Virus record (IMG/VR): IMGVR_UViG_2645727635_000012
From: a virus
Taxonomy: Duplodnaviria > Heunggongvirae > Uroviricota > Caudoviricetes
Direction: 5' to 3' (one strand)
Length of the DNA: 21,521 nt
Shown here: positions 3,450-21,159 of the stretch, piece by piece
Position numbering within the stretch: position 1 is the stretch's first letter
Layout: every line of letters begins with the position of its first letter
Made by a program: the position numbers and the translations under genes
The notes under the pieces: model-generated
What the model saw: the letters and a program-made list of their open reading frames with translations, nothing else
What the model was told of the DNA's origin: nothing
Databases searched by the model: none

Positions 3450-5108
3450 TTACCATCCTCCTGAACCAAAACGCCCGCCACGGTCACGCCCGGTGCTGCG
3501 TGGGGTGTGTATCTGAAATTTTGCGCTGCGCGATACCGCCAGCGTCCACAGCATGTGCAGACAGTCCGGGCCATCATCGTGGTCGGCTTTGGGGTAGTGG
3601 CGCAGCTGGTCAATCAGCGTCTGATGTGTGTGGCTGATACGAATCAGGCCGTTGGCCATATGCGGCTGAAGGGATTCGATACGCAGTGCCTTATCCTCCA
3701 GCGGGATGACCGGCAGCGCCGGAACCGGCACACCCAGCGCCGCCGAACGCTCAACCAGCACGGTACGCAGAAACTCCTGAAACTGAACGGACTCAAACGA
3801 CCAGCACAGGCAGTGATATTCCCGCTGATACTTAATCACGTCCTCGATAAGTTTATTCGGCAGACGTCGGCGGATATCGGCTTCAACCACATCCAGAATG
3901 CCGGTAAAGCGGTTAAAGCCCCCCACGAGAATGGCCGACGGGTCGCGGTTTTTATTCTTCTTCCCGAGACTGGGGTCAACAGCGCCGTAGAACACCCATT
4001 CATCAAGACGGTTAACCCAGAACTTAATGCAGCCCGCAAACAGCGCATCTTCACCGCTGACCGGGTCGTTCTGGTATTCAGAATCAAAGGTGTCATGACC
4101 GTCACGGACACGAATTTTCATCAGCGCCAGCAGGGGACGCGCCGCCCATGACACCACCGACCCGGCGAGCATCTCAGCCTCGTTCTGTCGGTAAAGTGCC
4201 TCCGCTGCTTCCGGCTGTTTGTTGCGGATGAGTTCTTCCCACTCGTCCCACAGCTTCATGTTGGCAGGCCACTGAATAACGGCCTTAAAGCGGGCCGTTT
4301 TCCACATCGGGTTATTGAGTGTGCGCGACAGTACGGAGTCGTAATGCAGGATGGTCCCGATATAAATAATATCGGTTTTACCGCCAGCCTCACCCAGCGG
4401 CATCACGGTTTTGGTGAGCCAGTCATGCAGCTTGTCGCGCTGCTCCGGGTTACGCACCATCTCGTCGTTCTCGATATCGTCGAGGATGACCAGGTCAGGA
4501 CGGTACGGACCGTGGCGCAGACCACGCAGTTTTTTACCACTACCGGCAACGGTCACCTTGATATTGTTGGCTGTGACGATGGTCCCCATACGCCAGACGC
4601 GACCCTGCCCGCACACCTCCGGGAAATCGTTTTTTAAACGGGGGTTAAATTCCAGTTCAGCCTTGATGGCTTCCAGCATCGGATAAGCCTGGTCGATACT
4701 GTCCATAATGATGACCGGGTAATGCTTAATGGCCCGGATAATGTTCCACAGGGTAAACAGCTGAGTCACCAGCGTGGATTTTGCTTCACCACGAGGCGCG
4801 GCGATGGCGTCGTTCTCCGGGTCCGGGCTTGCCACAACCTGTGGCAGACGGCTGAACAGGTATTTATGCAGCTCACTTTTTGCCGGGTTGCGGACGTAAT
4901 GCGGGAAATAGTTTTCGACAAAATAATCGTAGCCCGTCACCGGGTCGCAGACTGCCGCCCGGCGGGCCTGTGTGGCCTGCGGGTTAACATCGAACCCCAG
5001 ACATTCAGCCTCGATGGTCTGGCGGAGGTTGGCGATGTACTCCTGCAGGCTTCTCTGAAACTCTTTAATGGAAAGTTTACGTTTTGCCACGTCACACCTG
5101 GTATACAA
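3450..5108 (-). CDS. Terminase large subunit, Mu gp28-like
   Basis: 552-aa ORF with ATPase-like segment (DLVILDDIENDE) and nuclease-like C-terminal half; alternative GTG start about 18 nt inside preceded by AGGTG. Confidence 0.85.
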   Translation of the reverse strand: MYTRCDVAKRKLSIKEFQRSLQEYIANLRQTIEAECLGFDVNPQATQARRAAVCDPVTGYDYFVENYFPHYVRNPAKSELHKYLFSRLPQVVASPDPENDAIAAPRGEAKSTLVTQLFTLWNIIRAIKHYPVIIMDSIDQAYPMLEAIKAELEFNPRLKNDFPEVCGQGRVWRMGTIVTANNIKVTVAGSGKKLRGLRHGPYRPDLVILDDIENDEMVRNPEQRDKLHDWLTKTVMPLGEAGGKTDIIYIGTILHYDSVLSRTLNNPMWKTARFKAVIQWPANMKLWDEWEELIRNKQPEAAEALYRQNEAEMLAGSVVSWAARPLLALMKIRVRDGHDTFDSEYQNDPVSGEDALFAGCIKFWVNRLDEWVFYGAVDPSLGKKNKNRDPSAILVGGFNRFTGILDVVEADIRRRLPNKLIEDVIKYQREYHCLCWSFESVQFQEFLRTVLVERSAALGVPVPALPVIPLEDKALRIESLQPHMANGLIRISHTHQTLIDQLRHYPKADHDDGPDCLHMLWTLAVSRSAKFQIHTPRSTGRDRGGRFGSGGW

Positions 5109-5142
5109 ATATCAGACGGCCCGGAAAACCGGGCCGCTGTGG

Positions 5143-5643
5143 TTAACTGAAATTATCCTCAAGCTCTTTAGCGAAGCCTTCGAGCACCTCAAGAAACGGG
5201 GCATACTGTGCCGGGTGACGCTCCTTGATGAACGCGCCGAGCCGCTGCACCACTTCCAGTGCCGTGGCGAGCCGGTCGGTTTCCGGCAGGATTTTTTTAC
5301 TGCTGGCCACCGCCTTACTGAGACTGTCAGACAGACTCGCCAGCAGTTCGACGGACTCCTGCGGCGGGATGTCCGGGTTCTGGTTCAGCCGTTCAAGCGT
5401 CGTCTGACACTTCACCACCAGACTGATAAGCACGGTGCGGGCGACACTTTCCAGCCCGTCACCGGCGAGCGCGTGCGCGGCCCGCAGCTTGTCCCAGTCG
5501 TCGCCGTTCTTCATCGCCTGCGTTTTCCAGCGCCGCGCGGTATCGTGCGGCACGGCGTATTTCATGGCGACGATATCCAGCGGAAGCTGGTCAAAGATGT
5601 ACCCGTTACGGACTTTGTCCCTGATATCCTGTGACCACGCCAT
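5143..5643 (-). CDS. Terminase small subunit candidate (Mu gp27-like)
   Basis: 166-aa ORF immediately upstream of TerL in the same orientation; N-terminal region looks like a DNA-binding domain; assignment by synteny. Confidence 0.5.
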   Translation of the reverse strand: MAWSQDIRDKVRNGYIFDQLPLDIVAMKYAVPHDTARRWKTQAMKNGDDWDKLRAAHALAGDGLESVARTVLISLVVKCQTTLERLNQNPDIPPQESVELLASLSDSLSKAVASSKKILPETDRLATALEVVQRLGAFIKERHPAQYAPFLEVLEGFAKELEDNFS

Positions 5644-5849
5644 TAAGTGTCCTTTTGAGCCTGTTCAATCAGGCATTTAACTTCGTCGGGATTTTCAAGA
5701 ACATACACGTTTTTCCCGGTATCCAGCTCAATGATCGTGCCACCATATGCACCACACTGACGGTAAAAATGGGTGATGCGTTCAGCGACTACCATGACAG
5801 CGCTGGTGCTCCCTGAGCCTGCGCATTCTGTAAATCTGATAATGCTCAC
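5643..5849 (-). CDS. Hypothetical small protein (68 aa), GTG start
   Basis: ORF with GAAGGT Shine-Dalgarno 8 nt upstream of GTG; overlaps TerS-like start by 1 nt. Confidence 0.45.
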   Translation of the reverse strand: MSIIRFTECAGSGSTSAVMVVAERITHFYRQCGAYGGTIIELDTGKNVYVLENPDEVKCLIEQAQKDT

Positions 5850-5869
5850 TGTGTCAGACCTTCAAAAAA

Positions 5870-5957
5870 TCAGTTCTGTGATGAACACTGCCGGATGCCG
5901 TCAATAATCCGGCAGACCTGCGCCACCGCATCAAAGAATTGGTAGCCTTGTTAAGTC
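5870..5957. repeat. Partial duplicate of the 3' end of the lipoprotein gene (copy A of a direct repeat; copy B at 6180..6266)
   Basis: About 92 percent identity over the first ~60 bp including the TGA stop, one 3-bp indel; minus-strand translation gives a remnant ...FFDAVAQVCRIIDGIRQCSSQN* paralogous to the lipoprotein C-terminus. Confidence 0.8.
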
Positions 5958-5958
5958 A

Positions 5959-6147
5959 TTAACCCAGTTTCGCCCGAACTAAAGCATCTTTTGCTTCCAG
6001 CAATTTACGTAACCCGACCGACTTTTCCGGCCCGTCTGGCAGAGACTCATCCATTTTTCTTGCCAGATCGCCAATCGGTTTACTCACTTCCTGTAACGAA
6101 GCCGGAAGATGTTCATAAGCGAAATATTTCATAACTGGTGATGCCAT
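5959..6147 (-). CDS. Hypothetical 62-aa protein inserted between the duplicated segments
   Basis: ORF with strong AAGGAG Shine-Dalgarno 5 nt upstream of ATG; flanked by repeat copies A and B. Confidence 0.55.
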   Translation of the reverse strand: MASPVMKYFAYEHLPASLQEVSKPIGDLARKMDESLPDGPEKSVGLRKLLEAKDALVRAKLG

Positions 6148-9824: not shown

Positions 9825-10007
9825 TCACTTTGCGTTAGTGTGATTCTTCCAGCGGTTTTGCGCCGCACTGGGCTTTTTGCAACAACTGTGCCCCATCACC
9901 CCGCAACACCCTGTCAACCTCACTCGTCTGTTACTAATCCTCAACCATCGCCAGACCCCAACACCGTTTCTTCGAGCTAACAGAATCTTTGCTTTACGGT
10001 TTTTCAT
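9825..10007 (-). CDS. Small basic Cys-rich protein (60 aa; CCGVMGHSCC)
   Basis: ATG overlaps the stop of the upstream 57-aa ORF (ATGA); very basic composition. Confidence 0.4.
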   Translation of the reverse strand: MKNRKAKILLARRNGVGVWRWLRISNRRVRLTGCCGVMGHSCCKKPSAAQNRWKNHTNAK

Positions 10008-10177
10008 CGTTTTGCTCTCCTGCGTTTCTTTGCTTCGCGTCGTGCAGCTGCAATACCGGTATGGCGCTTTGGTGCCGGGATGATGCTGTCAGCCATCAGG
10101 GCATGTGGCTTTGCAATTAGCGCAGAAGCCCAAAAACGAGTCGGGTATGGTAATAAACCGATAAACGCTACACGCAT
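10004..10177 (-). CDS. Unannotated 57-aa protein: hydrophobic N-terminal half, poly-basic tail (RREAKKRRRAKR)
   Basis: Not in the ORF track (under 60 aa); strong AAGGAGG Shine-Dalgarno 5-6 nt upstream; ATG overlaps stop of the 165-aa gene (TAATG); manual translation. Confidence 0.45.
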   Translation of the reverse strand: MRVAFIGLLPYPTRFWASALIAKPHALMADSIIPAPKRHTGIAAARREAKKRRRAKR

Positions 10178-10674
10178 TACGCACCTCCTTTGGCGTCAAT
10201 ATTTACAGCCTGGCAAGCCTCGTTGAGTACCCAGTCAACCGCGTCTTTCCATGCTCCGGTTTCGACTGGCGGATTCTCACACTTTACCTGTTCATAGAAA
10301 CGCACTGCTTTAACTAGTCCTTCCGGCACTACCGACGCTGGCGGGGCAGCATAAAGCTCATGCATTCCATCAGGTAGCGAGTGACCTACATACTCACTGA
10401 ACCCATCAACACACATGCATCCATCTTCAACAATGCATGACGCTACTGGCAAAGCCACCTCCCGTGCCTCCAGTTCTTCTGCCCACTCCCGAAGCCCTTC
10501 AATCTCACCATTACGAGCTATCAGATCGCGACACAGTCTTTCGTTTTCATCCAGCAACGCCTGCACAACCTCCGGCGTAGCCGCAGCATGAAAAGCCTGT
10601 AGGTTCTGCCACGTCGTATCCCCCTTCGCGGCCTCTGTCACCTCACGCAGTGCCTGATAGTTAATCTCGCTCAC
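10177..10674 (-). CDS. Hypothetical protein, possibly ead/Ea22-like family (165 aa)
   Basis: N-terminus MSEINYQALREV...PEVVQALLDENERL resembles the ead/Ea22-like family from memory; Cys-rich middle; overlaps upstream gene. Confidence 0.5.
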   Translation of the reverse strand: MSEINYQALREVTEAAKGDTTWQNLQAFHAAATPEVVQALLDENERLCRDLIARNGEIEGLREWAEELEAREVALPVASCIVEDGCMCVDGFSEYVGHSLPDGMHELYAAPPASVVPEGLVKAVRFYEQVKCENPPVETGAWKDAVDWVLNEACQAVNIDAKGGA

Positions 10675-11538: not shown

Positions 11539-12249
11539 TTACCCCCTCCCCAGTGCCAGCGGTCTGTTGCTCTGACCATTAACCCCCTGATGCAGCCTGG
11601 CGTTTTTCCCGGCGATAAAACCGGCAGTAGCGGCAAACTCTGCACCCCGACACGCTTTAGCTGTGCGCATATCCCCGTCGCGCAGTCCTTTAGTGCTGTG
11701 CAGGTTCTTTCTGTAAAGCTCAAGGCGGCTTTTTTCTTCCGGGGAGACGTCATACACCGCAATGACATCACGGGCACCAAAGACCCAGCCTTCGCAGAAC
11801 TGGTCGCCACGGGCTACCCGTGTGGACGGACCACAACGTCTGCAGTGTTTATCCTGATATTTCTTGCGCTCTGCCATCATCTGACGGGAAAGCACATCAA
11901 ACGCGTAGGCCGCAATTTCCGGGCGACTGTCAGGACCATAAAAACGAACGTAACGTTTGAGTGAACCAGAAGCCCGGTATTCACCTGAGATGTAACACTC
12001 GACACCGAAGGCTTTACATACCAGGTCACACAGGATGTGCATATAACGCGGCGGTGTACTGGCGTCACTCGGCGCACCCGCGCTGGCAGCTTCCTGAATG
12101 TCGAACAATTCCGCGTCGTTTTCGCTGATGCCATGCTGGCGCATATAAGCCTGGGCTTTTGCAATAGCGTTAGCGGCTTCTTCCGGGCTTGATGTTCCTC
12201 TGGCAAGGCGTAACAGTTTTTTGATTTTGGCAATGTATTTATCTTTCAT
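11539..12249 (-). CDS. DUF2786-like prophage early protein (236 aa)
   Basis: N-terminal KIKKLLRLA...SSPEEAANAIAKAQAYM is typical of DUF2786; common in prophage early regions. Confidence 0.65.
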   Translation of the reverse strand: MKDKYIAKIKKLLRLARGTSSPEEAANAIAKAQAYMRQHGISENDAELFDIQEAASAGAPSDASTPPRYMHILCDLVCKAFGVECYISGEYRASGSLKRYVRFYGPDSRPEIAAYAFDVLSRQMMAERKKYQDKHCRRCGPSTRVARGDQFCEGWVFGARDVIAVYDVSPEEKSRLELYRKNLHSTKGLRDGDMRTAKACRGAEFAATAGFIAGKNARLHQGVNGQSNRPLALGRG

Positions 12250-12262
12250 GGTCGTCTGAACC

Positions 12263-12445
12263 TCAGCATCCTGAATTCTGAATTACGCAACTTCCGGCAC
12301 GGCCTTCAGGAGCGTGGGGAGCTCGTTCTGGCTGCGGCGCTGAATGAACATCTGCTGTTGATTGAGAACTGGTCGCAAGACGATTAAAACAAACGATTGT
12401 CAGATTAATTTCGCGGGCGAATTTTTTTTGCTTAGCGATATTCAT
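12263..12445 (-). CDS. Possible small protein (60 aa), weak call
   Basis: ORF with GAGGAAG Shine-Dalgarno 8 nt upstream; low-complexity composition. Confidence 0.3.
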   Translation of the reverse strand: MNIAKQKKFAREINLTIVCFNRLATSSQSTADVHSAPQPERAPHAPEGRAGSCVIQNSGC

Positions 12446-12464
12446 AAATAAACTTCCTCAGATT

Positions 12465-12508
12465 CAGGCGTAAGCCAGCCCCGGCGGGTTTACGCCTGTT
12501 TTAAATAA
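12465..12508 (+). terminator. GC-rich hairpin with downstream T-run on the plus strand
   Basis: 9-bp stem CAGGCGTAA / TTACGCCTG with 16-nt structured loop then GTTTTAAATAA; the U-tract is only on the plus strand, opposite to the flanking genes. Confidence 0.4.
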
Positions 12509-12527
12509 CAATTAAAAACAAATTAAA

Positions 12528-12719
12528 TTAATGCGGTGCTTTCAGTGTTTCGACTTTTACGAAATAAGGCTCGACATTAATTTCAACCACACAACCACAT
12601 TTAAAATCTCTGGCAGGTGAAACGGTTTTCACTACACGACCACCACGCAACGCAGGATGTGCAGTGTGCATGAAGCGTGTCCCTACCGGATACTGCTTAT
12701 TAAAGTTCTTCGCATTCAT
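12528..12719 (-). CDS. Hypothetical protein (63 aa)
   Basis: ORF in the early region. Confidence 0.45.
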   Translation of the reverse strand: MNAKNFNKQYPVGTRFMHTAHPALRGGRVVKTVSPARDFKCGCVVEINVEPYFVKVETLKAPH

Positions 12720-12933
12720 GGCGTGGCCTCCAGCCCTTCAGGTGAGCGTTAGCGCAGAACTCCGCACGATGTTCAGCCCAGATGCGGCGCAGGGTGCTAC
12801 ACGGGCTTTGCGCTGCCTTACGCCACAGTTTTTCAGCCTCAGCATAATCGCCGCGTTGTTCTGCTCTGGATGCGCCCAGCGAATACGCTGCGCAACTATT
12901 TCCGGCTCTGTACTCTTTGATATCCTGATGCAT
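12700..12933 (-). CDS. Hypothetical protein (about 77 aa)
   Basis: Start trimmed to the ATG 1 nt after the upstream TAA stop (TAACATG). Confidence 0.45.
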   Translation of the reverse strand: MHQDIKEYRAGNSCAAYSLGASRAEQRGDYAEAEKLWRKAAQSPCSTLRRIWAEHRAEFCANAHLKGWRPRHECEEL

Positions 12934-12934
12934 G

Positions 12935-13579
12935 TTAAACCCCTGCAATATCCAGCGGGATTGCGCGGTATTCATCAGAATCACCGACGCGCTCATATAC
13001 GCGGATATAGCTCTTGCTGCCAATCACCTGGACGGCTTCACCAATCAGCGTCATGGCGTTATTCCAGCGTTCGTCCTCAATTTCAAGGCGACGCAAGGCC
13101 AGAACGCGCCCGGTGTTAATGTTGCCTTCCTTGTCCGTGCTGAATGCCTCGCTGATGATGGCTTTGATTTCAGGGCGTGCACCTTCCGTCCAGTCAGCCA
13201 GGCAATCATCAATCAGCGACTTCGCGGTCTGAATGCGTTCATCAAACGCGATACGGTCCTGCATGGCGCGCTGAATCTTGTAACGCCCGTCAAAGCTGTA
13301 AAGCGTGATATTCCCTTTTTTGCCGCCTTTCACAGCGCCGTATTTCTCCGCCGACAGGTCAATAAATGCCTGGATATCACCAAACGCACGCAGTTTCAGT
13401 TCCCGCAGTGAGGCGGAGGCAGCAATCACCATCTCCACAAGCTCACCGACCAGCTGCTCGCGGTCGCGGTCAATATCTTTGATAAGGCTTTCAGGTGTCA
13501 TTACGCCACGGGCATCCACCCAGTAACCTTCAGGCGCTTGAGTTTTCGTGTATTGCTTAACTTTATTTTCAGTCGTCAT
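12935..13579 (-). CDS. Conserved Mu-like early-region protein, possibly DUF3164 family (214 aa)
   Basis: Size and location typical of DUF3164 proteins in Mu-like prophages; family recalled, not searched. Confidence 0.6.
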   Translation of the reverse strand: MTTENKVKQYTKTQAPEGYWVDARGVMTPESLIKDIDRDREQLVGELVEMVIAASASLRELKLRAFGDIQAFIDLSAEKYGAVKGGKKGNITLYSFDGRYKIQRAMQDRIAFDERIQTAKSLIDDCLADWTEGARPEIKAIISEAFSTDKEGNINTGRVLALRRLEIEDERWNNAMTLIGEAVQVIGSKSYIRVYERVGDSDEYRAIPLDIAGV

Positions 13580-13608
13580 AATTAAATTACCTCAGTGATA
13601 TTTACAGA

Positions 13609-13824
13609 TTAATGTGTGTTATGCGCGCAGGGGGCCACGCCAACAGAAAATAAATCAACGCCGTTAAATTCTTTATTAAGCGTTTGATTCATTACCTCCC
13701 ATAACCGTTGTCTTACTCCGACCTCTTTATCCGTAAATCCTTTTTTATCAATAGCCCCCATACTCCTGACACGAAGCGTGCCGTTTTCATCGGTATAGAT
13801 GATTACCTCTAACTTAACCGCCAT
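13609..13824 (-). CDS. Hypothetical protein (about 71 aa)
   Basis: Start trimmed to the internal ATG with AAGGTGG Shine-Dalgarno 5 nt upstream. Confidence 0.45.
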   Translation of the reverse strand: MAVKLEVIIYTDENGTLRVRSMGAIDKKGFTDKEVGVRQRLWEVMNQTLNKEFNGVDLFSVGVAPCAHNTH

Positions 13825-14005
13825 GTTTTCCACCTTTGAAATCAAACGATTTAAAAATAATTTCGTTCATAAAACAGTGAGTTTTTATGATAATGTCGGA
13901 AACCTGCTCTCCCGTGACATCAGGCGGCAACTGATACGTCGCGACAGCTTTCTCCGGTTTACCAGGCCTGTCCAGGCTGAAGGTTAAGTCAGGCTCTAAT
14001 GACAT
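13814..14005 (-). CDS. Hypothetical protein (63 aa)
   Basis: ORF in the early region; overlaps the next gene by 11 nt. Confidence 0.4.
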   Translation of the reverse strand: MSLEPDLTFSLDRPGKPEKAVATYQLPPDVTGEQVSDIIIKTHCFMNEIIFKSFDFKGGKHGG

Positions 14006-14015
14006 TTTTCACCTC

Positions 14016-14267
14016 TCAATGCATTTGTGTCTCTTGAGGAATATACGGACATCCCTGTGCCAGTTGTTTCACGTAATCATGGTAGATTTGCAGATCAAGC
14101 CGTTCATTTCCGTGTTTCTCTTTCAGAATCGTACAAATAGCGCCAACAGTCCCCAGAGTTCTTGCCGCTTCTTCGAGTGTGGCATTGTCGCCATTTTCCA
14201 CCCGAATAAGGTTATGGCACTGGTTATTACCCAGGTCGGTAAATACTATTGTTAATTTCACGCTCAC
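14016..14267 (-). CDS. Hypothetical protein (83 aa), GTG start
   Basis: ORF in the early region downstream of B. Confidence 0.45.
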   Translation of the reverse strand: MSVKLTIVFTDLGNNQCHNLIRVENGDNATLEEAARTLGTVGAICTILKEKHGNERLDLQIYHDYVKQLAQGCPYIPQETQMH

Positions 14268-14282
14268 TTTTAATTCCTCGTT

Positions 14283-14507
14283 TTATTGCCATACGACGGT
14301 GCAGCCGTCGATACAGGACGTTTTAACCACACGACGCAGGCCGCTGAATGTCTGGATGATTTCCGTTATCGGCCATACAGGACCGCCCACGGGCGGGCAG
14401 GCATAAACCACAGGTAAACGGTGATGTTGCCCAGTTACGCGACCGCCGGTGGTGTGGATGGCTACACGGGCACGGGAACGGACGGCGTTAATGGTCTGCT
14501 TGTCCAT
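14283..14507 (-). CDS. Small protein immediately downstream of B (74 aa); position and size match Mu Kil
   Basis: Start trimmed to the internal ATG with GGAGAA Shine-Dalgarno 7 nt upstream; Kil assignment is positional only. Confidence 0.4.
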   Translation of the reverse strand: MDKQTINAVRSRARVAIHTTGGRVTGQHHRLPVVYACPPVGGPVWPITEIIQTFSGLRRVVKTSCIDGCTVVWQ

Positions 14508-14521
14508 CGTCTTGTTCTCCA

Positions 14522-15415
14522 TCAGTGAATTAACATTTCTGAATATTTATCAATGGCCTGCACACTGACCGGTGCATCGCTGATATCACAAATCCGGTAC
14601 ACACCGCGCGCCAGCTTGAACAGACGACGGGCATTGCCCAGCGAACGTGTGTAAAGTGCCTCACCAATTTCCGGGTCTGCCGCTTCCGGCATCATGTCTG
14701 TGGCAATCTTGTTAAAATCTTCCTGCGTCAGCGTATCGCCCAGGTTAAGCGCCAGCGCCACGCGGCTGTATAATTGAGCGAACTCACCACAACGGCCCTT
14801 AAGGTTAATCAGAAGGTGAGGCATACCCGCCAGGACAATCCCGATACCCGCTTTGTCATGCAGACGGCGCAATACCTCCAGTGCACGATAGGGAAGCAGT
14901 TCAGCCTCATCCACCATCAGCAGACGACCTGACCCACGCAGTTCACGCACACAGGCATCAATCTTCTCGCGAATATCGCCGTGAACCTTTATACCCAGCT
15001 GACGGCACAGTTCATCGAGTAACTTTCTGGCCGTATAGCCAATATCGGCTTCAATGAGCACTACATCCCGGTTTCTGGCAGCATACTCACTCAGAATCAT
15101 GCTTTTACCCAGACCCGCCGCGCCATACAGCACGCAAATATCACACTCCAGATGGGCGTAGGTCAGCACCTCCAGCCCTTTGGCGGCCATGCCGGTGGTG
15201 ACAAATCGCACTTTAATACGGCGGTTGTTTTCCTTTTCCCATTCACGGGTCACAAAGGCAGAAATGCGTTCTTCAATATCAGCCATATCGCCCTGATATT
15301 TACCCTGCAAATACTGGTTAATAACGGCGCTGCTACGACCAATAGCACGGGCAACGTGGGTCTGCGTAAAGCCGCGACGGGCCATTACGTCATTTAATTG
15401 CGTAATTAAACTCAT
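14522..15415 (-). CDS. B: DNA transposition ATPase B (MuB-like, AAA+)
   Basis: 297 aa; N-terminal helix-turn-helix-like region; Walker A LYGAAGLGKS; directly downstream of the transposase. Confidence 0.9.
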   Translation of the reverse strand: MSLITQLNDVMARRGFTQTHVARAIGRSSAVINQYLQGKYQGDMADIEERISAFVTREWEKENNRRIKVRFVTTGMAAKGLEVLTYAHLECDICVLYGAAGLGKSMILSEYAARNRDVVLIEADIGYTARKLLDELCRQLGIKVHGDIREKIDACVRELRGSGRLLMVDEAELLPYRALEVLRRLHDKAGIGIVLAGMPHLLINLKGRCGEFAQLYSRVALALNLGDTLTQEDFNKIATDMMPEAADPEIGEALYTRSLGNARRLFKLARGVYRICDISDAPVSVQAIDKYSEMLIH

Positions 15416-15433
15416 AATTAAATACCTTTTAAA

Positions 15434-17476
15434 TTAACGATTATTTGTGCCGTTTTTCTTTAAATTGCGCTCACGGTCAGACACGAATAAATAAAGTTCT
15501 TCTTTTTCCTTTTTCTCCTGGCGTTCCAGTCCATATCCCAGATTAAAGTCAGGCTTCTGCGTAATAGCCGGGGTAAGCTCGCGTTTAGCCTCTTCGATTT
15601 TCTGCGTGGCCCGTGCAATGCGGCCTCTGGCGCGTTTCTCCTGCTGCTGTTCGATAACAGCTTTCGGGAACGCATCAACCTTATTACCGTTCCAGATGGC
15701 ATCGCAGATATAAGAACCGTCCATCCGCCTGACAATCACGCTGTTTGCGTCGTGAATGTCGTAACAAACCCTGACTTCATTTCCATGCTCTGCTGCCAGT
15801 TCTGTGGAGAAATAGATGTTTCTGAATAACACCACTTCACCGCGTCGCACTGTGCAGATGCTTTCCGGTCGGAACATTTCGTGAAGTTCTTCCGGCGACA
15901 GCATGTCAATTTCAGTCTTCTGCTCTTTTATCAGTTTCCGGCGATACGCTGCCGGGCTGTAATGTTCGCCATCCTCTTTGCGGGGAAGGCTGCTGTGTGG
16001 CCGGTTGTTATACCGTTTCACCTCCAGCTCTATTGCGGCCAGCAGTTGCTCAAAGGTGGGGACTTCTCCCATCGCTTTAACCTGCCGTTTTGTCAGCTCT
16101 TTCCCTTTGTGGGTGGCCTTAATGGCTGACTGTGTGATGCGTTGCTGCATCATCACCGTTTCCTTGTCTGCATTTTTTGAGCAGTACGTCTGGAAACTCA
16201 GAGCCACATCTTTGGGTATTCCTTTGTTTGCTCGTTCTATTACCCCGCGCCCCTGCGGGTTACCAGGTATCCCCGTGTGATGCTCCACACCCAGCCGGGG
16301 CAGAATCCCGGTAATATCGGCATCAAGTACCTGGTTTTTTTCACCGCCCCCGTTATCGGAGTAATAAATCAGCGGTATTCCGTGTTGTGACATGCCATGA
16401 CGCAATGCATCAGCGACGGCCACCACGTTCTCCGACAGGGACAGCGACCAGCCCACAATAAAGCGTTGCCCAGCATCCATAACCAGCGTCACTTCTGGCC
16501 GGAATGTATTCCCGGTGGCAGGGTTGAATGCCATCAGTTTCATACAGTGACCATCCCCGACCCATACCGCATTAACCGGTAATGTGCTCCAGTCGCGCCG
16601 CACAAAGGGATTGAGCGAACGCCAGGCTGAACCCGTGGAGCGGAAACGCTCTTTAACAATCACCGGGACGCTGCTTAACACCCGTCTTACTGCGTGAACT
16701 GAAGGCAGTGCCGCCAGCATTCCCGCATCGTTCGCGTGTTTTTCATGCCACCAGGCTGAAAACTCACGATACGCATATTCAACGGTCGGGCGCTTCCATG
16801 AGCGATAGAACATAAAGAAATCGCTCAACCACCAGACCTGCTCCCACGGTGTTCCCTTATGATGACCGGGAGCCAGTAACGCCAGTAACTGATTGGCATC
16901 ACCGCGCGCCATCACCCAGCTGGAGTACCAGCTATCCAGGCTGCCGGTGCTGACACCGGTTCGCTTTCCCTGACGTGCATTTGCAGTATTAGCTGCTTCG
17001 ATAATGCGGTCAGGTAACGCCCCCATGCGCACACCATCAACGATGTGCTTTAACGCGGCCTTCCTGGTCATTCCGGCGTATTCGCGCAGTTTATGCACTT
17101 CAGTAGCCAGCAATATCCGCGCATCAGCGATGGCCTTTTGCTTGTCAGTCAGTGCCTGGACTTCGCGTAATGCCAGTTCCGGGCATTTGACCATCACCTC
17201 CAGTTCATCGCGAACGGCGACGTTTTTAACTGCCTTCTGCTCAACCACGGCGGGCAGTTGCGTATCTTCCAGGACCTGATGGGTCAGGCGCTTACGTAAA
17301 ACTTTCTGCGCTTCAGCGGGCAGGCAGTCGATGTGATACTCGAATGCTTTGGTGCCTTCACGCTTGCGCTTCCATTCCGGGTGCGTCTCTGTGATCCGAT
17401 TGAGCGTCCAGCGCACCCCCTGAACTGTACCGGGCAAACCAGGAAGACCGGCCAGCTCATTGGCTGAATAAAACAT
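15434..17476 (-). CDS. A: DDE transposase A (MuA-like)
   Basis: 680 aa, between ner and B; size and synteny match MuA; start overlaps ner stop (TAATG). Confidence 0.9.
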   Translation of the reverse strand: MFYSANELAGLPGLPGTVQGVRWTLNRITETHPEWKRKREGTKAFEYHIDCLPAEAQKVLRKRLTHQVLEDTQLPAVVEQKAVKNVAVRDELEVMVKCPELALREVQALTDKQKAIADARILLATEVHKLREYAGMTRKAALKHIVDGVRMGALPDRIIEAANTANARQGKRTGVSTGSLDSWYSSWVMARGDANQLLALLAPGHHKGTPWEQVWWLSDFFMFYRSWKRPTVEYAYREFSAWWHEKHANDAGMLAALPSVHAVRRVLSSVPVIVKERFRSTGSAWRSLNPFVRRDWSTLPVNAVWVGDGHCMKLMAFNPATGNTFRPEVTLVMDAGQRFIVGWSLSLSENVVAVADALRHGMSQHGIPLIYYSDNGGGEKNQVLDADITGILPRLGVEHHTGIPGNPQGRGVIERANKGIPKDVALSFQTYCSKNADKETVMMQQRITQSAIKATHKGKELTKRQVKAMGEVPTFEQLLAAIELEVKRYNNRPHSSLPRKEDGEHYSPAAYRRKLIKEQKTEIDMLSPEELHEMFRPESICTVRRGEVVLFRNIYFSTELAAEHGNEVRVCYDIHDANSVIVRRMDGSYICDAIWNGNKVDAFPKAVIEQQQEKRARGRIARATQKIEEAKRELTPAITQKPDFNLGYGLERQEKKEKEELYLFVSDRERNLKKNGTNNR

Positions 17477-17712
17477 TACGCCGCCTTACTGGCATACCGG
17501 CTTGGCCAGATCTCCGCAGGTTCCACACCAATAGCATCGGCTATGATGCGTTCATATTTAGGGCATGAGCGATACAGTGCATTTTTTAAAGAGTCTTTTT
17601 TTAGACCAGCGCGTTCAGAAAGTTCACGCAATGTAAAACCTTTGGTGTGCACAGCGGCAACGATGTACTCGCGGTGCCAGTCTTTGTTCATTACTTCATT
17701 TCTAACCATCAT
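17476..17712 (-). CDS. ner: Ner-like DNA-binding regulator
   Basis: Contains DWHR...IWPSRY, matching Mu Ner; start trimmed to ATG with AAGGG Shine-Dalgarno; divergent from the repressor gene. Confidence 0.85.
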   Translation of the reverse strand: MMVRNEVMNKDWHREYIVAAVHTKGFTLRELSERAGLKKDSLKNALYRSCPKYERIIADAIGVEPAEIWPSRYASKAA

Positions 17713-17728
17713 TAGGTTACCCTTAAAA

Positions 17729-17771
17729 GTTATCCGTGCGGATAACACCGCCGTGTTATCCCTTCGGATAT
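17729..17771. promoter_or_regulatory. Candidate operators in the ner/c divergent region: GTTATCCG-tg-CGGATAAC (17729..17746) and imperfect TTATCC-cttc-GGATAT (17756..17771)
   Basis: Inverted repeats sharing the GTTATCC half-site, in the ner 5' leader; another inverted repeat CTTTCTTT...AAAGAAAG lies about 50 bp upstream of the repressor start. Confidence 0.5.
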
Positions 17772-17880
17772 AAGTATTGATCTACAAATAGAAAATTACA
17801 AGCTTTCTTTTCTTTCTTTGATGAAAAGAAAGTCTTTTTGTAGAAATACATTGTAAATCAATATATTGCGAGGAAAGAAA

Positions 17881-18528
17881 ATGAGTAAACAAACCGCCGA
17901 TGATTTTTCCTTTTCTCAGAATAGAAAAGAAAGCATTCAGGACAGAATCAAGCAACTGGTTGGCACTAGGAGTCTGCGTAAAGCCACCTCAGACTGGGGG
18001 TTGCCGTACTCGACCATAAATAACTACTTTGAGAAAGGCACCACTCCCGGCCTAAATGTGGTCGCTACGATAGCAAAATTAGAGAATGTATCACTGGAAT
18101 GGTTGGTCTACGGTGAGAGCAGGCATGATCCAATAATAGAAAAAAAGGTGCCTACAGAAGACGTTAACCGCCCAAACACAAGTATTGTCGATGAAATACT
18201 AAGGCGAGCTACTCCAGAAGATAGAGAGCGTCTTATTGATATGCTGTGTTGTATTGGCATCAAAGGAGTCCTGGAACGCCTACAGCAACCCACCAGGCAA
18301 ACCAAGCAAGCCGATAGCGAACTTGAGGAACAAAGGAAGGCCATTCAAAGCCTGAACATCAGGCAATCGCTTAAAGACGCTGTTTGCATGGCATTAGCTG
18401 GCGATGAGGAAAATGACAAAGAGATTTTGCGCCGCGCCAAAGCTATTTTCTGTGCTGGAACACCAGGTGATCGCGTTCCCGTCACACCGGAGCAAGAAAC
18501 TAAGCCTGTAAACAAGAAATCAGCATAA
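17881..18528 (+). CDS. Prophage repressor (Mu c-like position; CI-type helix-turn-helix N-terminus, no peptidase domain)
   Basis: Start trimmed to ATG with AGGAAAG Shine-Dalgarno; N-terminus ...GLPYSTINNYFEKGTTPGLNVVATIAKLENVSLEWLVYGE resembles phage CI-type DNA-binding domains; divergent from ner. Confidence 0.65.
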   Translation: MSKQTADDFSFSQNRKESIQDRIKQLVGTRSLRKATSDWGLPYSTINNYFEKGTTPGLNVVATIAKLENVSLEWLVYGESRHDPIIEKKVPTEDVNRPNTSIVDEILRRATPEDRERLIDMLCCIGIKGVLERLQQPTRQTKQADSELEEQRKAIQSLNIRQSLKDAVCMALAGDEENDKEILRRAKAIFCAGTPGDRVPVTPEQETKPVNKKSA

Positions 18529-18689
18529 GCGCCTCGTTTTGGCGGGGCGTGTGCTGTTAGCTAATCAGCAATAACCACAACAAAACCGAACACACAGATG
18601 AGAACAAATTGAGGAAAACGGGTAAGGATAAAACACTTTTTTAAAAGCATTTAAAACCCGTTAAGTTTGTAGCAGAACCAGATCAAAAG

Positions 18690-18840
18690 CGCCCAGAAAA
18701 AAGCGCAAAAAAAAGCGTTTTTGGTCATTTCTCACAAATCCGCCCAGAATCACACTAAATCACCACACCCCGCGCCACACAAGGCTTGCTGGTTCTACCA
18801 GGCTGCACTAACTCCGCCCAGAATTGATCACTACCCCACA
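18690..18840. repeat. Candidate Mu-like left end: three same-orientation CGCCCAGAA repeats (18690, 18741, 18815) and putative terminus ...CCCCACA at about 18840
   Basis: Repeats read from sequence; in phage orientation the end reads 5'-TGTGGGGTAGTGATCAATTCTGGGCGG, beginning TG like Mu ends; boundary is inferred. Confidence 0.35.
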
Positions 18841-18861
18841 GGTTATTTGCCGTTAAACTGT

Positions 18862-19413
18862 TCATGCGTTAGTTTCTCCACAGACACAAAACGCCACGAC
18901 GCCCGGAGCTGCACACTCGCGGGCGTTACTCTTTTCTGGAGCGCAGAAGATTTTGTAGACCAGTGCTGCATGCTCCTGGAGCTTCGAAATTGACAGATAC
19001 AACTCATCATTAATTGCTGTCTGCTCGTGTGGCTCCACTACCCCATCTTCGATTGCCGAACGAATCTGCTTTGAGTAACTCCCGATCTGTTCGATGACTT
19101 CCAGCAGGCGCTGGTTTATATCGGCGTTCTCTACTTCCTCAATTTCTGGAAGTGATACAAACACCCCACCAGCAGACTGTGCGACAGCATCCGCAATGTG
19201 GTGAGTACCAGCCGCACGCTGTAAAACCATTGCCCATCCCAACGGAAAAAACTGATCGCCATCGGCACGAAGGCGGTTGAATAAAGCGTTCTCTGTTACA
19301 TCCAGCCACTCAGCAGCTTCAGCGTAACCCCCCGGCAACACCGCGATAGTTTTTCTGACAGCTTTCACGTACCACTCAGGCTGTTTTTCCACTTTCCAGT
19401 GATGCTTACCCAC
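18862..19413 (-). CDS. Hypothetical lambdoid early protein downstream of cro (183 aa)
   Basis: ORF overlapping the cro stop by 8 nt, same orientation. Confidence 0.55.
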   Translation of the reverse strand: MGKHHWKVEKQPEWYVKAVRKTIAVLPGGYAEAAEWLDVTENALFNRLRADGDQFFPLGWAMVLQRAAGTHHIADAVAQSAGGVFVSLPEIEEVENADINQRLLEVIEQIGSYSKQIRSAIEDGVVEPHEQTAINDELYLSISKLQEHAALVYKIFCAPEKSNARECAAPGVVAFCVCGETNA

Positions 19414-19666
19414 GGCTTACCTCCTGTTCCTGTGGTTTTAACTCATTCCGGTTTTGACTAGATTGAAAGCGTGCAGGATAGAGAATCTGCATTTCGCTGA
19501 TTTCTCCCTTAAAAAAATTGGCCAGACGTTCTGCAAGCTCGATAGATGGAATTTGTTCCAGTCTTTCAATACGACTCAGCGTCGCTGGATTGACCTGAAC
19601 GCCCGCAGCAACATGCTGCAAAGTAAATCCGTGCGCCTTACGCACATTCCGTAATGGTGATTGCAT
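19406..19666 (-). CDS. Cro-like helix-turn-helix regulator (XRE family)
   Basis: 86 aa with helix-turn-helix-like segment; divergent from the CI-like gene; GGAGG Shine-Dalgarno. Confidence 0.75.
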   Translation of the reverse strand: MQSPLRNVRKAHGFTLQHVAAGVQVNPATLSRIERLEQIPSIELAERLANFFKGEISEMQILYPARFQSSQNRNELKPQEQEVSRG

Positions 19667-19680
19667 ATAACCTCCACATA

Positions 19681-19743
19681 TTGCGTGATGAGCATATTAT
19701 TTCACGCAAATATTTTGCGCAAGTTGATTTGCTTAACGCGCAA
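19681..19743. promoter_or_regulatory. OR-like operator/promoter region between cro-like and cI-like genes
   Basis: TTGCGTGA...TCACGCAA inverted repeat (19681..19709), palindrome TTGCGCAA (19715..19722), TTGCTTAACGCGCAA (19729..19743); cI-like ATG has no obvious Shine-Dalgarno, so its transcript may be leaderless. Confidence 0.55.
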
Positions 19744-19763
19744 TAAAGAAATGTAATAAACGC

Positions 19764-20456
19764 ATGAACATAGGAAATCGAGTCAGACAACTTCGCCAGG
19801 CGAAGAACATGAAAATCGCCGATCTCGCTGAAGCAATAGGAGTGGATGCGGCGAATATCTCGCGCCTCGAAACAGGTAAGCAGAAACAATTCACTGAACA
19901 AGCCCTGAGTAATATTGCCAGGAGCTTAGGTGTTGATATTGCTGATCTCTTTACCTCAGACCTCAAAAGTAATACTGTATGTAAAAACAGTATTAGTGAG
20001 GATGTTGCGCAGGTGAAGGATGTATTCCGTATTGAAATGCTGGATGTCAGTGCCAGTGCGGGAAATGGCCTTATCCAGGGCGGTGATGTCATTGATGTGA
20101 TTCATGCCATTGAATACAGAACTGATAATGCTGTATCGATGTTTGGTGGACGACCAGCAAATCACATTAAAGTTATCAACGTTCGTGGGGACAGTATGTG
20201 TCCAACCATTGAGCCAGGAGATCTCATCTTCGTTGATATCAGTATCAATCAGTTTGATGGGGATGGTATATATGTATTTGGTTTTGATGATAAAATTTAC
20301 GTCAAACGACTGCAAATGATACCTGATAAACTGCTGGTAATTTCTGATAATCAGATTTACCGCGAATGGGGAATTACCAGCGAAAACGAACATCGGTTTA
20401 TGGTCTTTGGAAAGGTCTTAATCAGTCAGTCACAAACCCTTAAGCGACACAATTAA
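19764..20456 (+). CDS. CI-like repressor with LexA-type S24 peptidase domain
   Basis: N-terminal helix-turn-helix (IADLAEAIGVDAANISRLETGK); C-terminal S24 signature VRGDSMCPTIEPGDLIFVD with downstream catalytic Lys context (YVKRL). Confidence 0.85.
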   Translation: MNIGNRVRQLRQAKNMKIADLAEAIGVDAANISRLETGKQKQFTEQALSNIARSLGVDIADLFTSDLKSNTVCKNSISEDVAQVKDVFRIEMLDVSASAGNGLIQGGDVIDVIHAIEYRTDNAVSMFGGRPANHIKVINVRGDSMCPTIEPGDLIFVDISINQFDGDGIYVFGFDDKIYVKRLQMIPDKLLVISDNQIYREWGITSENEHRFMVFGKVLISQSQTLKRHN

Positions 20457-20477
20457 CCCCCTACCTCAACATCAATT

Positions 20478-20498
20478 AGCCACCAGAAGGTGGCTTTT
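20478..20498 (+). terminator. Intrinsic terminator after the cI-like gene
   Basis: Stem AGCCACC-agaa-GGTGGCT followed by TTTT. Confidence 0.7.
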
Positions 20499-20511
20499 CA
20501 TTACCCACCAA

Positions 20512-20551
20512 ATTGCATATCTCGCAATAAAAACACTTGCATAATGCGCAA
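20512..20551. promoter_or_regulatory. OL-like operator region downstream of cI
   Basis: ATTGC-atatctc-GCAAT (20512..20528) and TTGCATAATGCGCAA (20537..20551), the latter matching the OR motif at 19729..19743 at 12 of 15 positions. Confidence 0.4.
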
Positions 20552-20976
20552 CTTCATTTTATCTTTCTTTCCAGACCTACAAACAAGGTACTAACAAAAT
20601 TTGGTTGTAACACGGCGTATGGCACATGCGTCGTTAGCGGTCTGGGGACGTTAAAGGGGACAATCCACTCCTTGCTCGGGCAAACAAACCAGGTAGCCGG
20701 AATGTGCAAGTCAATGAGGATGCTGATAAGACGCCTAACCAGCGTGGCGATTCGGTTTGACGCCTGGGAAGAGACCAGGGTGCAACGATGAGGGCATTTA
20801 TGGAACCGCGACAAAGTGTGGTGCCGTAACTGGCTAAGTGCTCTCAGCGTTGTGGTAATCCGCGAAATGGCGCGGCGGTAAGTATGGCGGGGTTATTCCT
20901 TCCCCGTTGAGGACACCGGGTTGTCAGGTTGACCATACGCTTAAGTGACAAGCCCACCACAACAGCCACTGCTTTG

Positions 20977-21022
20977 GCGGTACCAGTTTGTACACTTGCT
21001 TCCGGCTGGTACCGCTCTTTTT
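20977..21022 (+). terminator. Intrinsic terminator in the leader upstream of the 21160 gene
   Basis: Perfect 10-bp stem GCGGTACCAG / CTGGTACCGC with 19-nt loop, followed by TCTTTTT. Confidence 0.65.
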
Positions 21023-21159
21023 ACAAAACAGAGAAGAGCATCACCGGACGACGGGCTCATAACCCAATCCACCCGGGCGGCTGCCACCGCAGGTGTTCTT
21101 CTCTGTTTTGTGGAGAAACCAACCGACCTTGCAGGGTCGATATGATGAGGAGCAGCAAA

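Follow-up and report, generated by a model that had tools for sequence, protein, structure and literature searches.

Evidence that a boundary between Mu-like and lambdoid DNA is the left end of a transposable prophage inserted into the rha gene of a lambdoid prophage

The DNA analyzed here, referred to as the window, is a stretch of 21,521 nucleotides from a virus record in the IMG/VR collection. Its interval 18529-18861 is flanked by two open reading frames, one for a 215-aa protein on the plus strand (ATG at 17881, ending at 18528) and one for a 183-aa protein on the minus strand (stop codon at 18862-18864). The motif CGCCCAGAA is found three times in the window, always on the plus strand, at 18690, 18741 and 18815. 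The spacing of 51 and 74 bp and the shared orientation are as reported in a preliminary description of this DNA. By chance, a mean of 0.30 copies is expected, and none of 100 dinucleotide-preserving shuffles gives three. A repeat finder extends the unit to 15 nt, with the consensus AA(A/C)(T/A)(C/G)CGCCCAGAA(T/A). The sequence ...CCCCACA ends at 18840, 17 bp past the outermost copy of the motif; the same description had proposed an element terminus near this base, and homology on both sides does break at 18840/18841.

The outer 164 bp of the interval (18677-18840) are identical or nearly so in 10 relatives of the element, and are retained at 93-95% identity even in copies where the inner part and the repressor differ. 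This conserved stretch is exactly the part that holds the three repeats, which are named L1, L2 and L3 from the terminus inward. The inner part, 18529-18676, is not kept in copies that carry other repressor alleles. One terminator-like hairpin overlaps L3, which has a T-rich flank similar to that of R1, the first site at the opposite end of the element. The features are collected in Table 1.

Table 1. Features at and around the boundary, in window coordinates
Feature	Position	Strand	Basis or remark
MuB-like AAA+ transposition ATPase, 297 aa	14522..15415	-	PF13401, PF05621; 31% identity to Mu B, E = 4e-20 (BLASTP)
DDE transposase, MuA homologue, 680 aa	15434..17476	-	PF09299 Mu-transpos_C, 57.7 bits; PF02316 Mu DNA-binding domain, 40.1 bits
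Ner-like regulator	17476..17748	-	PF13693 HTH_35, E = 1.4e-25
Prophage repressor, 215 aa	17881..18528	+	PF07022 CI-type HTH, 25.8 bits against a cut-off of 22
Inner variable part of left end, repressor stop to L3	18529..18676		A/T-rich, terminator-like hairpins
Conserved attL core of Mu-like prophage	18677..18840	-	Contains three putative transposase-binding sites and the terminus
L3, putative transposase site	18685..18699	-	Core TTCTGGGCG 143-151 from terminus, reading inward
L2, putative transposase site	18736..18750	-	Core TTCTGGGCG 92-100 from terminus, reading inward
L1, putative transposase site	18810..18824	-	Core TTCTGGGCG 18-26 from terminus, reading inward
Terminal CA-3' of element (5'-TG on opposite strand)	18839..18840	+	Homology breakpoints at 18840/18841
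GGTT, one copy of 4-bp target-site duplication	18841..18844		Empty site, reciprocal junction, flanks of relatives
5' stub of interrupted Rha-family gene	18841..18865	-	ATG 18865-18863, then 8 codons + 1 nt
YmfL, cII-type (CP76) regulator of lambdoid prophage, 183 aa	18862..19413	-	PF06892, E = 1.8e-14; annotated ymfL in 100%-identical DNA
Cro-like HTH protein of lambdoid prophage, 86 aa	19406..19666	-	PF01381
cI-like repressor of lambdoid prophage, 230 aa, HTH + S24 self-cleaving peptidase	19764..20456	+	PF00717, PF01381

The genes to the left of the interval are those of a Mu-like phage. The 215-aa repressor is without an S24 peptidase domain and is transcribed toward the left end. It had been described as c-like, which is right as to its end at 18528 and its Mu-c-like location; no similarity to Mu c is detectable, so that position alone corresponds, and the protein has a CI-type helix-turn-helix domain instead. 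The Ner-like gene starts at an internal ATG in annotated relatives, to give a product of 78 aa. Both Pfam scores of the transposase exceed their cut-offs. By BLASTP, it is about 22% identical to MuA in the catalytic core only (E = 9e-8), with D308 and D374 aligned to MuA D269 and D336, and its DNG...E stretch aligns to retroviral integrase cores.

The nearest transposases from isolated phages are 40-50% identical over more than 90% of the length, and come from Pseudomonas phage VW-6B, Klebsiella phage ST405-OXA48phi1.1, Yersinia phages vB_YpM_5 and vB_YpM_6, Mannheimia phage 3927AP2 and Haemophilus phage SuMu. Mu itself falls outside the best 25 phage matches. DNA identity to Yersinia vB_YpM_5 reaches 74% across the ner-A junction, and no isolated phage in the collection matches the DNA of the element beyond about 2% coverage. 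As judged from these comparisons, the element would work like Mu, yet it is no close relative, and its similarity falls below that expected within the genus Muvirus.

To the right of the interval lies a lambdoid immunity region with the layout of a divergent cI-like repressor, a cro-like gene and then a cII-type gene. The Pfam assignments bear out the cro/cI-type module that had been proposed to adjoin the Mu-like end. This DNA is 98-100% identical to that of mEp460, SfV, the cdtI phage and E. coli prophages. In the uninterrupted prophage of E. coli CD45 (record L002), the Rha coding sequence runs from 4865 to 6025 on the minus strand, and starts 4 bp inside the ymfL stop codon as an ATGA overlap. 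In the coordinates of that record, the insertion point is 6000/6004, at codon 8/9 of rha, nucleotide 21-25. The window holds the first 25 nt of rha, and this stub now reads on into the Mu-like end. Insertion about 21 bp past the stop of the 183-aa gene had been predicted, and the distance is correct; the site is not intergenic, but falls in codon 8/9 of the overlapping rha gene.

The rha-ymfL junction is uninterrupted in about 990 complete genomes, and in uninterrupted prophages rha is followed by replication-region genes and an antiterminator. The 35.7-kb insert would therefore cut off the lambdoid early promoter from all that follows ymfL. Because the early operon is split after its second gene, the lambdoid prophage is very probably disabled.

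Database matches to the two sides of 18840/18841 are to different phages. Lambdoid matches begin at 18841 and extend rightward only, to mEp460, SfV, the cdtI phage, many Stx phages and E. coli CD45, the last at 100% identity, and the DNA to the left of 18840 matches a Mu-like prophage in other E. coli genomes. The 312-bp end region is present in 49 of 5426 complete E. coli genomes (about 1%). Among the matches listed, similarity ends at 18840, or one to two bases further by chance. The copies sit in unrelated host genes, including mhpT, eutC, ypdF, an RHS gene, phnJ and genes for an aldehyde dehydrogenase and a TonB-dependent receptor, as well as in two other prophages. Such a spread over many unrelated sites is the result of transposition, not of site-specific integration.

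The junction at 18840/18841 of the window is absent from complete RefSeq E. coli genomes, in which the best coverage stops at the boundary, and a scan of a collection of species-representative genomes found neither this junction nor the predicted reciprocal one. The sole metagenome match to a 20-mer across the junction (L012) was rejected as a chance match, given that it lies in an apparent ribosomal RNA gene and diverges right after the pattern.

Insertion into another prophage was also seen in two of the 10 relatives examined, NZ_CP082831.1 (L005) and UMNF18 (L009), with an HK97-type protease/capsid gene as the target in one case and a P2-like tail gene cluster in the other. Therefore, prophage-in-prophage insertion is frequent for this Mu-like element.

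Both ends of the element were extracted from nine complete or internally deleted relatives. All nine read 5'-TGTGGGG...GAAGTTACA-3', with element lengths of 35.6-37.5 kb, apart from one internally deleted derivative of 12.5 kb. The motif of the left end recurs at the right end in inverted orientation, with R1 as far from its terminus as L1 is from the left terminus, and with R3 flipped. Read inward from each terminus, the 8-nt core TTCTGGGC lies at 18-25 (L1), 92-99 (L2) and 143-150 (L3) on the left, and at 18-25 (R1), 40-47 (R2) and 68-75 (R3, inverted) on the right. In Mu, the 7-nt core, measured on NC_000929 (core CGAAA), lies at 20-26, 125-131 and 165-171 for L1 to L3 and at 20-26, 42-48 and 57-63 for R1 to R3. 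The comparison made earlier with the geometry of Mu L1 is thus borne out, and the step from R1 to R2 in the present element is 22 bp. In whole elements of about 36 kb, six of the seven copies of TTCTGGGC are within 150 bp of an end, and one copy is elsewhere.

The most divergent complete relative, UMNF18, has the same base of the motif changed at all six sites, from GGGC to GGAC at five of them and from GGGC to GGAT at L2. The UMNF18 transposase shares 91.5% identity, and the residues that differ cluster at 137-188, directly behind the N-terminal Mu DNA-binding domain. That the sites changed in concert is the strongest evidence available, though indirect, that one protein may read all six. The transposase would accordingly be the protein that binds the TTCTGGGCG sites; given its identity of about 22% to MuA, the Mu mechanism is transferred to it only by analogy.

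The element is flanked by 4-bp direct repeats in all nine relatives. A fifth base disagrees in six of them, where the base of the left flank is not A, and the base that follows GTTAC is A in nine of nine and so belongs to the element. The preliminary description had put forward GGTTA as a 5-bp duplication, and had suggested that the other end be checked for inverted repeats and a direct repeat of GGTTA, and that an uninterrupted lambdoid prophage be compared. The inverted repeats are present, and the direct repeat is GGTT (18841-18844) rather than GGTTA. The empty site in E. coli CD45 reads gacaaacGGTTatttgcc, with a single GGTT within the annotated Rha coding sequence.

The 4-bp rule and the CD45 empty site together predict a reciprocal junction, acaaacGGTT/TGTAACTTCGCG (the slash marks the joint), which was used for an exact search of IMG/VR. 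The predicted junction acaaacGGTT/TGTAACTTCGCGTTTTT is present in two contigs from sibling genomes (L014 and L015), where it reads gacaaacGGTT/TGTAAC and leads on into the right-end sequence. These contigs hold the remainder of rha, joined to the right end of the element. The lambdoid side of the two contigs matches CD45 up to L002:6004 and that of the window matches it from L002:6001. Because the reciprocal junction was found and the CD45 matches overlap at L002:6001-6004, the sequences indicate a simple insertion that duplicated GGTT, not GGTTA.

The junction of the window itself recurs in a third IMG/VR contig (L013), which is 100% identical to window positions 12152-21115 and belongs to a different IMG genome entry. 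By genome entry, the left junction is found in 2645727604 and the right junction in 2645727635 and 2654587726. A search for contigs that encode exactly the same repressor protein returned 10 places, which are 10 other insertion sites with none beside ymfL, and no molecule with both junctions. For the genome of the window itself, the GGTT duplication is therefore deduced from the sibling assemblies and the 4-bp rule of the family.

The flanking repeats indicate that the stagger in the lineage of this element is 4 bp. The scar of transposable phages is given as 5 bp (Mu) or 6 bp (B3) in a review-type source (PMC8705779). A literature search, with most subscription journals outside its reach, found no paper that states a 4-bp duplication in Mu-like phages; such a duplication is on record only in the feature table of GenBank LC727895, as a 'duplication due to insertion' for a related Mu-like insert. 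A 4-bp stagger may define an E. coli lineage of Mu-type transposases.

With high probability, then, 18529-18840 represents attL, the left end of a transposable prophage of the Mu type, about 35.7 kb in length, that inserted into the rha gene of a lambdoid prophage. This reading draws on what is documented above: where the element terminates, how the repeats are arranged at either end, the 4-bp duplication, the site of insertion and the genes present. The repressor, ner, transposase and MuB-like genes are found just inside attL, at 14522-18528. The three CGCCCAGAA repeats, which read TTCTGGGCG inward, would be the L1, L2 and L3 binding sites of the 680-aa DDE transposase, and together with R1-R3 would assemble a transpososome that cleaves after the terminal CA-3' and links the ends to target DNA. 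The present copy inserted at rha codon 8/9, with duplication of GGTT. The target is the third gene of the rightward early operon (cro-like, ymfL/cII-like, rha ...) of an SfV/mEp460/e14-like lambdoid prophage.

In principle, the repeats could serve as operators for the repressor of the prophage, or form some other array for regulation or replication such as iterons, given that they lie just downstream of the repressor gene and that L3 overlaps a terminator-like hairpin. This is very improbable. The same core recurs 35 kb away at the opposite end, where it is inverted and equally far from the terminus; the sites are kept in copies with different repressor alleles and a different inner region, and they changed together with the transposase in UMNF18. 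Operators would also be expected in the divergent promoter region between repressor and ner (17749-17880), not at the left end. It is likewise very improbable that 18840/18841 is a mosaic recombination joint of phage modules, or a border between tandem prophages, instead of a junction made by transposition into a prophage. Mosaicism is pronounced in lambdoid phages, and the window by itself offers one junction only, but dozens of unrelated loci carry this end sequence and break off at the identical base, and the reciprocal junction carries the duplicated GGTT, with flanks that are contiguous in uninterrupted prophages. The other end has both the repeats and the duplication, and the Mu-like and lambdoid genes are not contiguous elsewhere. 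The Mu-like left end of the preliminary description is upheld by the termini, the repeats on both sides, the duplication and the Mu-type genes. Of its two placements, beside or within a prophage, the second is correct, since the lambdoid sequences that flank the element on either side form one continuous stretch in uninterrupted prophages.

Another reading keeps the insertion but takes the duplication to be the canonical 5 bp, as in Mu, with one terminus misplaced by one base. In three of the nine relatives, an A does precede the left 4-bp repeat and so matches the final base of ...TTACA. The other six have a different base there, whereas the base after GTTAC is A in all nine, which makes it part of the element. 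Moreover, the empty site cGGTTa gives GGTT/TG on one side and CA/GGTT on the other, which makes the 5-bp reading impossible at this locus, and the independent annotation of a related Mu-like element in GenBank LC727895 also gives a duplication of 4 bp. A misplaced terminus is thus most unlikely, and the 4-bp duplication of GGTT is retained.

The orientation of the Mu-like insert within the lambdoid operon allows for a speculation that is unlikely to be right, in which SOS induction of the lambdoid prophage would switch on an SOS-insensitive Mu-like phage by read-through. The genes ner-A-B, on the minus strand, lie directly downstream of the lambdoid early rightward operon and are co-directional with it. 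That operon is under the control of an S24-type, presumably SOS-cleavable, cI-like repressor, and the Mu-like repressor is without S24. Transcription that ran on across the rha stub and attL would yield RNA antisense to the gene of the Mu-like repressor but in the sense orientation for the transposition genes, and the 35.7-kb insert would meanwhile cut off the lambdoid prophage from its own replication and antiterminator genes. Counting against this, the terminator-like hairpin at L3 lies on the read-through strand.

Like phage Mu, the element has 5'-TG...CA-3' termini and three repeats at each end. In both phages, the cores of L1 and R1 lie equally far from their termini, at about 18-26 nt, a long spacer separates L1 from L2, R2 follows R1 at 22 bp, and R3 is inverted. 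As in Mu, the repressor, ner, A and B genes adjoin the left end, and insertion sites are essentially random. The site sequence, TTCTGGGCG, is unrelated to the (C/T)(A/G)CGAAA of Mu, and the step from L1 to L2 is 74 bp and that from L2 to L3 is 51 bp, compared to 105 and 40 bp in Mu. The duplication is 4 bp instead of 5, the repressor is of a different family, and the transposase and B protein share only the low identities given above (about 22% and 31%). The prophage in eutC of E. coli E2348/69 (EPEC) is of the same phage type, with 97.8% identity in attL.

Sp18-like elements (Sp18 of O157 Sakai and relatives) differ from the present element in their transposase, which is about 45% identical, and in their end repeats (TTTGATACC). 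The Sp18-like element of LC727895 is similar in its annotated 4-bp duplication and in a repeat core 18-26 nt from each end. This element (LC727895.1, 6093-45429; L018/L019) lies inside an Stx1a phage, and one of its termini is annotated as TA, not CA. Sp18-like and other Mu-like phages in STEC have been reported within Stx or lambdoid prophages and other mobile elements, and in closed CC119 genomes six of 10 Mu-like phages are in mobile elements, several of them Stx phages (PMC10132054). Compared to the Sp18-like inserts, the present copy is in a different lambdoid gene, rha, and in a non-Stx immunity region of the SfV/mEp460 type. It is a new instance of an already documented event, a Mu-like phage inside a lambdoid prophage, with ends that are now precisely defined.

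The current understanding of transposable phages is unchanged by this result, and its value is for annotation. The left terminus, the six repeats of the end sites and the 4-bp rule are fixed for a type of prophage that is found in about 1% of complete E. coli genomes. The limits of each copy can now be set to the exact base, and a prophage nested in another need no longer be mistaken for a single large or mosaic phage. Searches for transposable prophages that assume a scar of 5-6 bp should heed the 4-bp duplication.

Several further features of this prophage family were observed. Internally deleted remnants occur in TUM9812 (L006), in Eco_23-3571 (L010) and in two other records (L024 and L030), either as an element of 12.5 kb or with a truncated transposase gene fused to tail genes. 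The remnants keep the left end, and that in TUM9812, where checked, keeps both ends and the 4-bp repeat. In several relatives (CFS3292, AZ146 and E2348/69), a gene of some 740 bp, annotated as a DNA-methyltransferase, separates the DUF1804 gene from terL; the comparison was with 14407-15149 of record L001. It is missing from the copy in the window (5100-5108) and from UMNF18, which makes it a presence/absence polymorphism within the family.

At the start of the window (1 to about 108), the first 100 or so bases are not from the Mu-like prophage, but match the terminal region upstream of istA of ISEc12, of the IS21 family, a sequence found at 5086 places in 1703 E. coli genomes. Homology to the prophage relatives starts at 97, in the spacer between a virion-morphogenesis gene and a protease gene. 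It therefore seems that an IS element, with its terminus placed approximately, has split the Mu-like prophage, which would make a nest of three, the IS within the Mu-like and the Mu-like within the lambdoid prophage. Such an insertion would explain why the window and its sibling IMG/VR contigs all break at the window start. Finally, window positions 9840-10192, in the early region of the Mu-like prophage with ead/Ea22-like genes, are 79-92% identical to phiV10, Stx phages, phage P1 and RCS47, and this similarity suggests a module exchanged between unrelated temperate phages.
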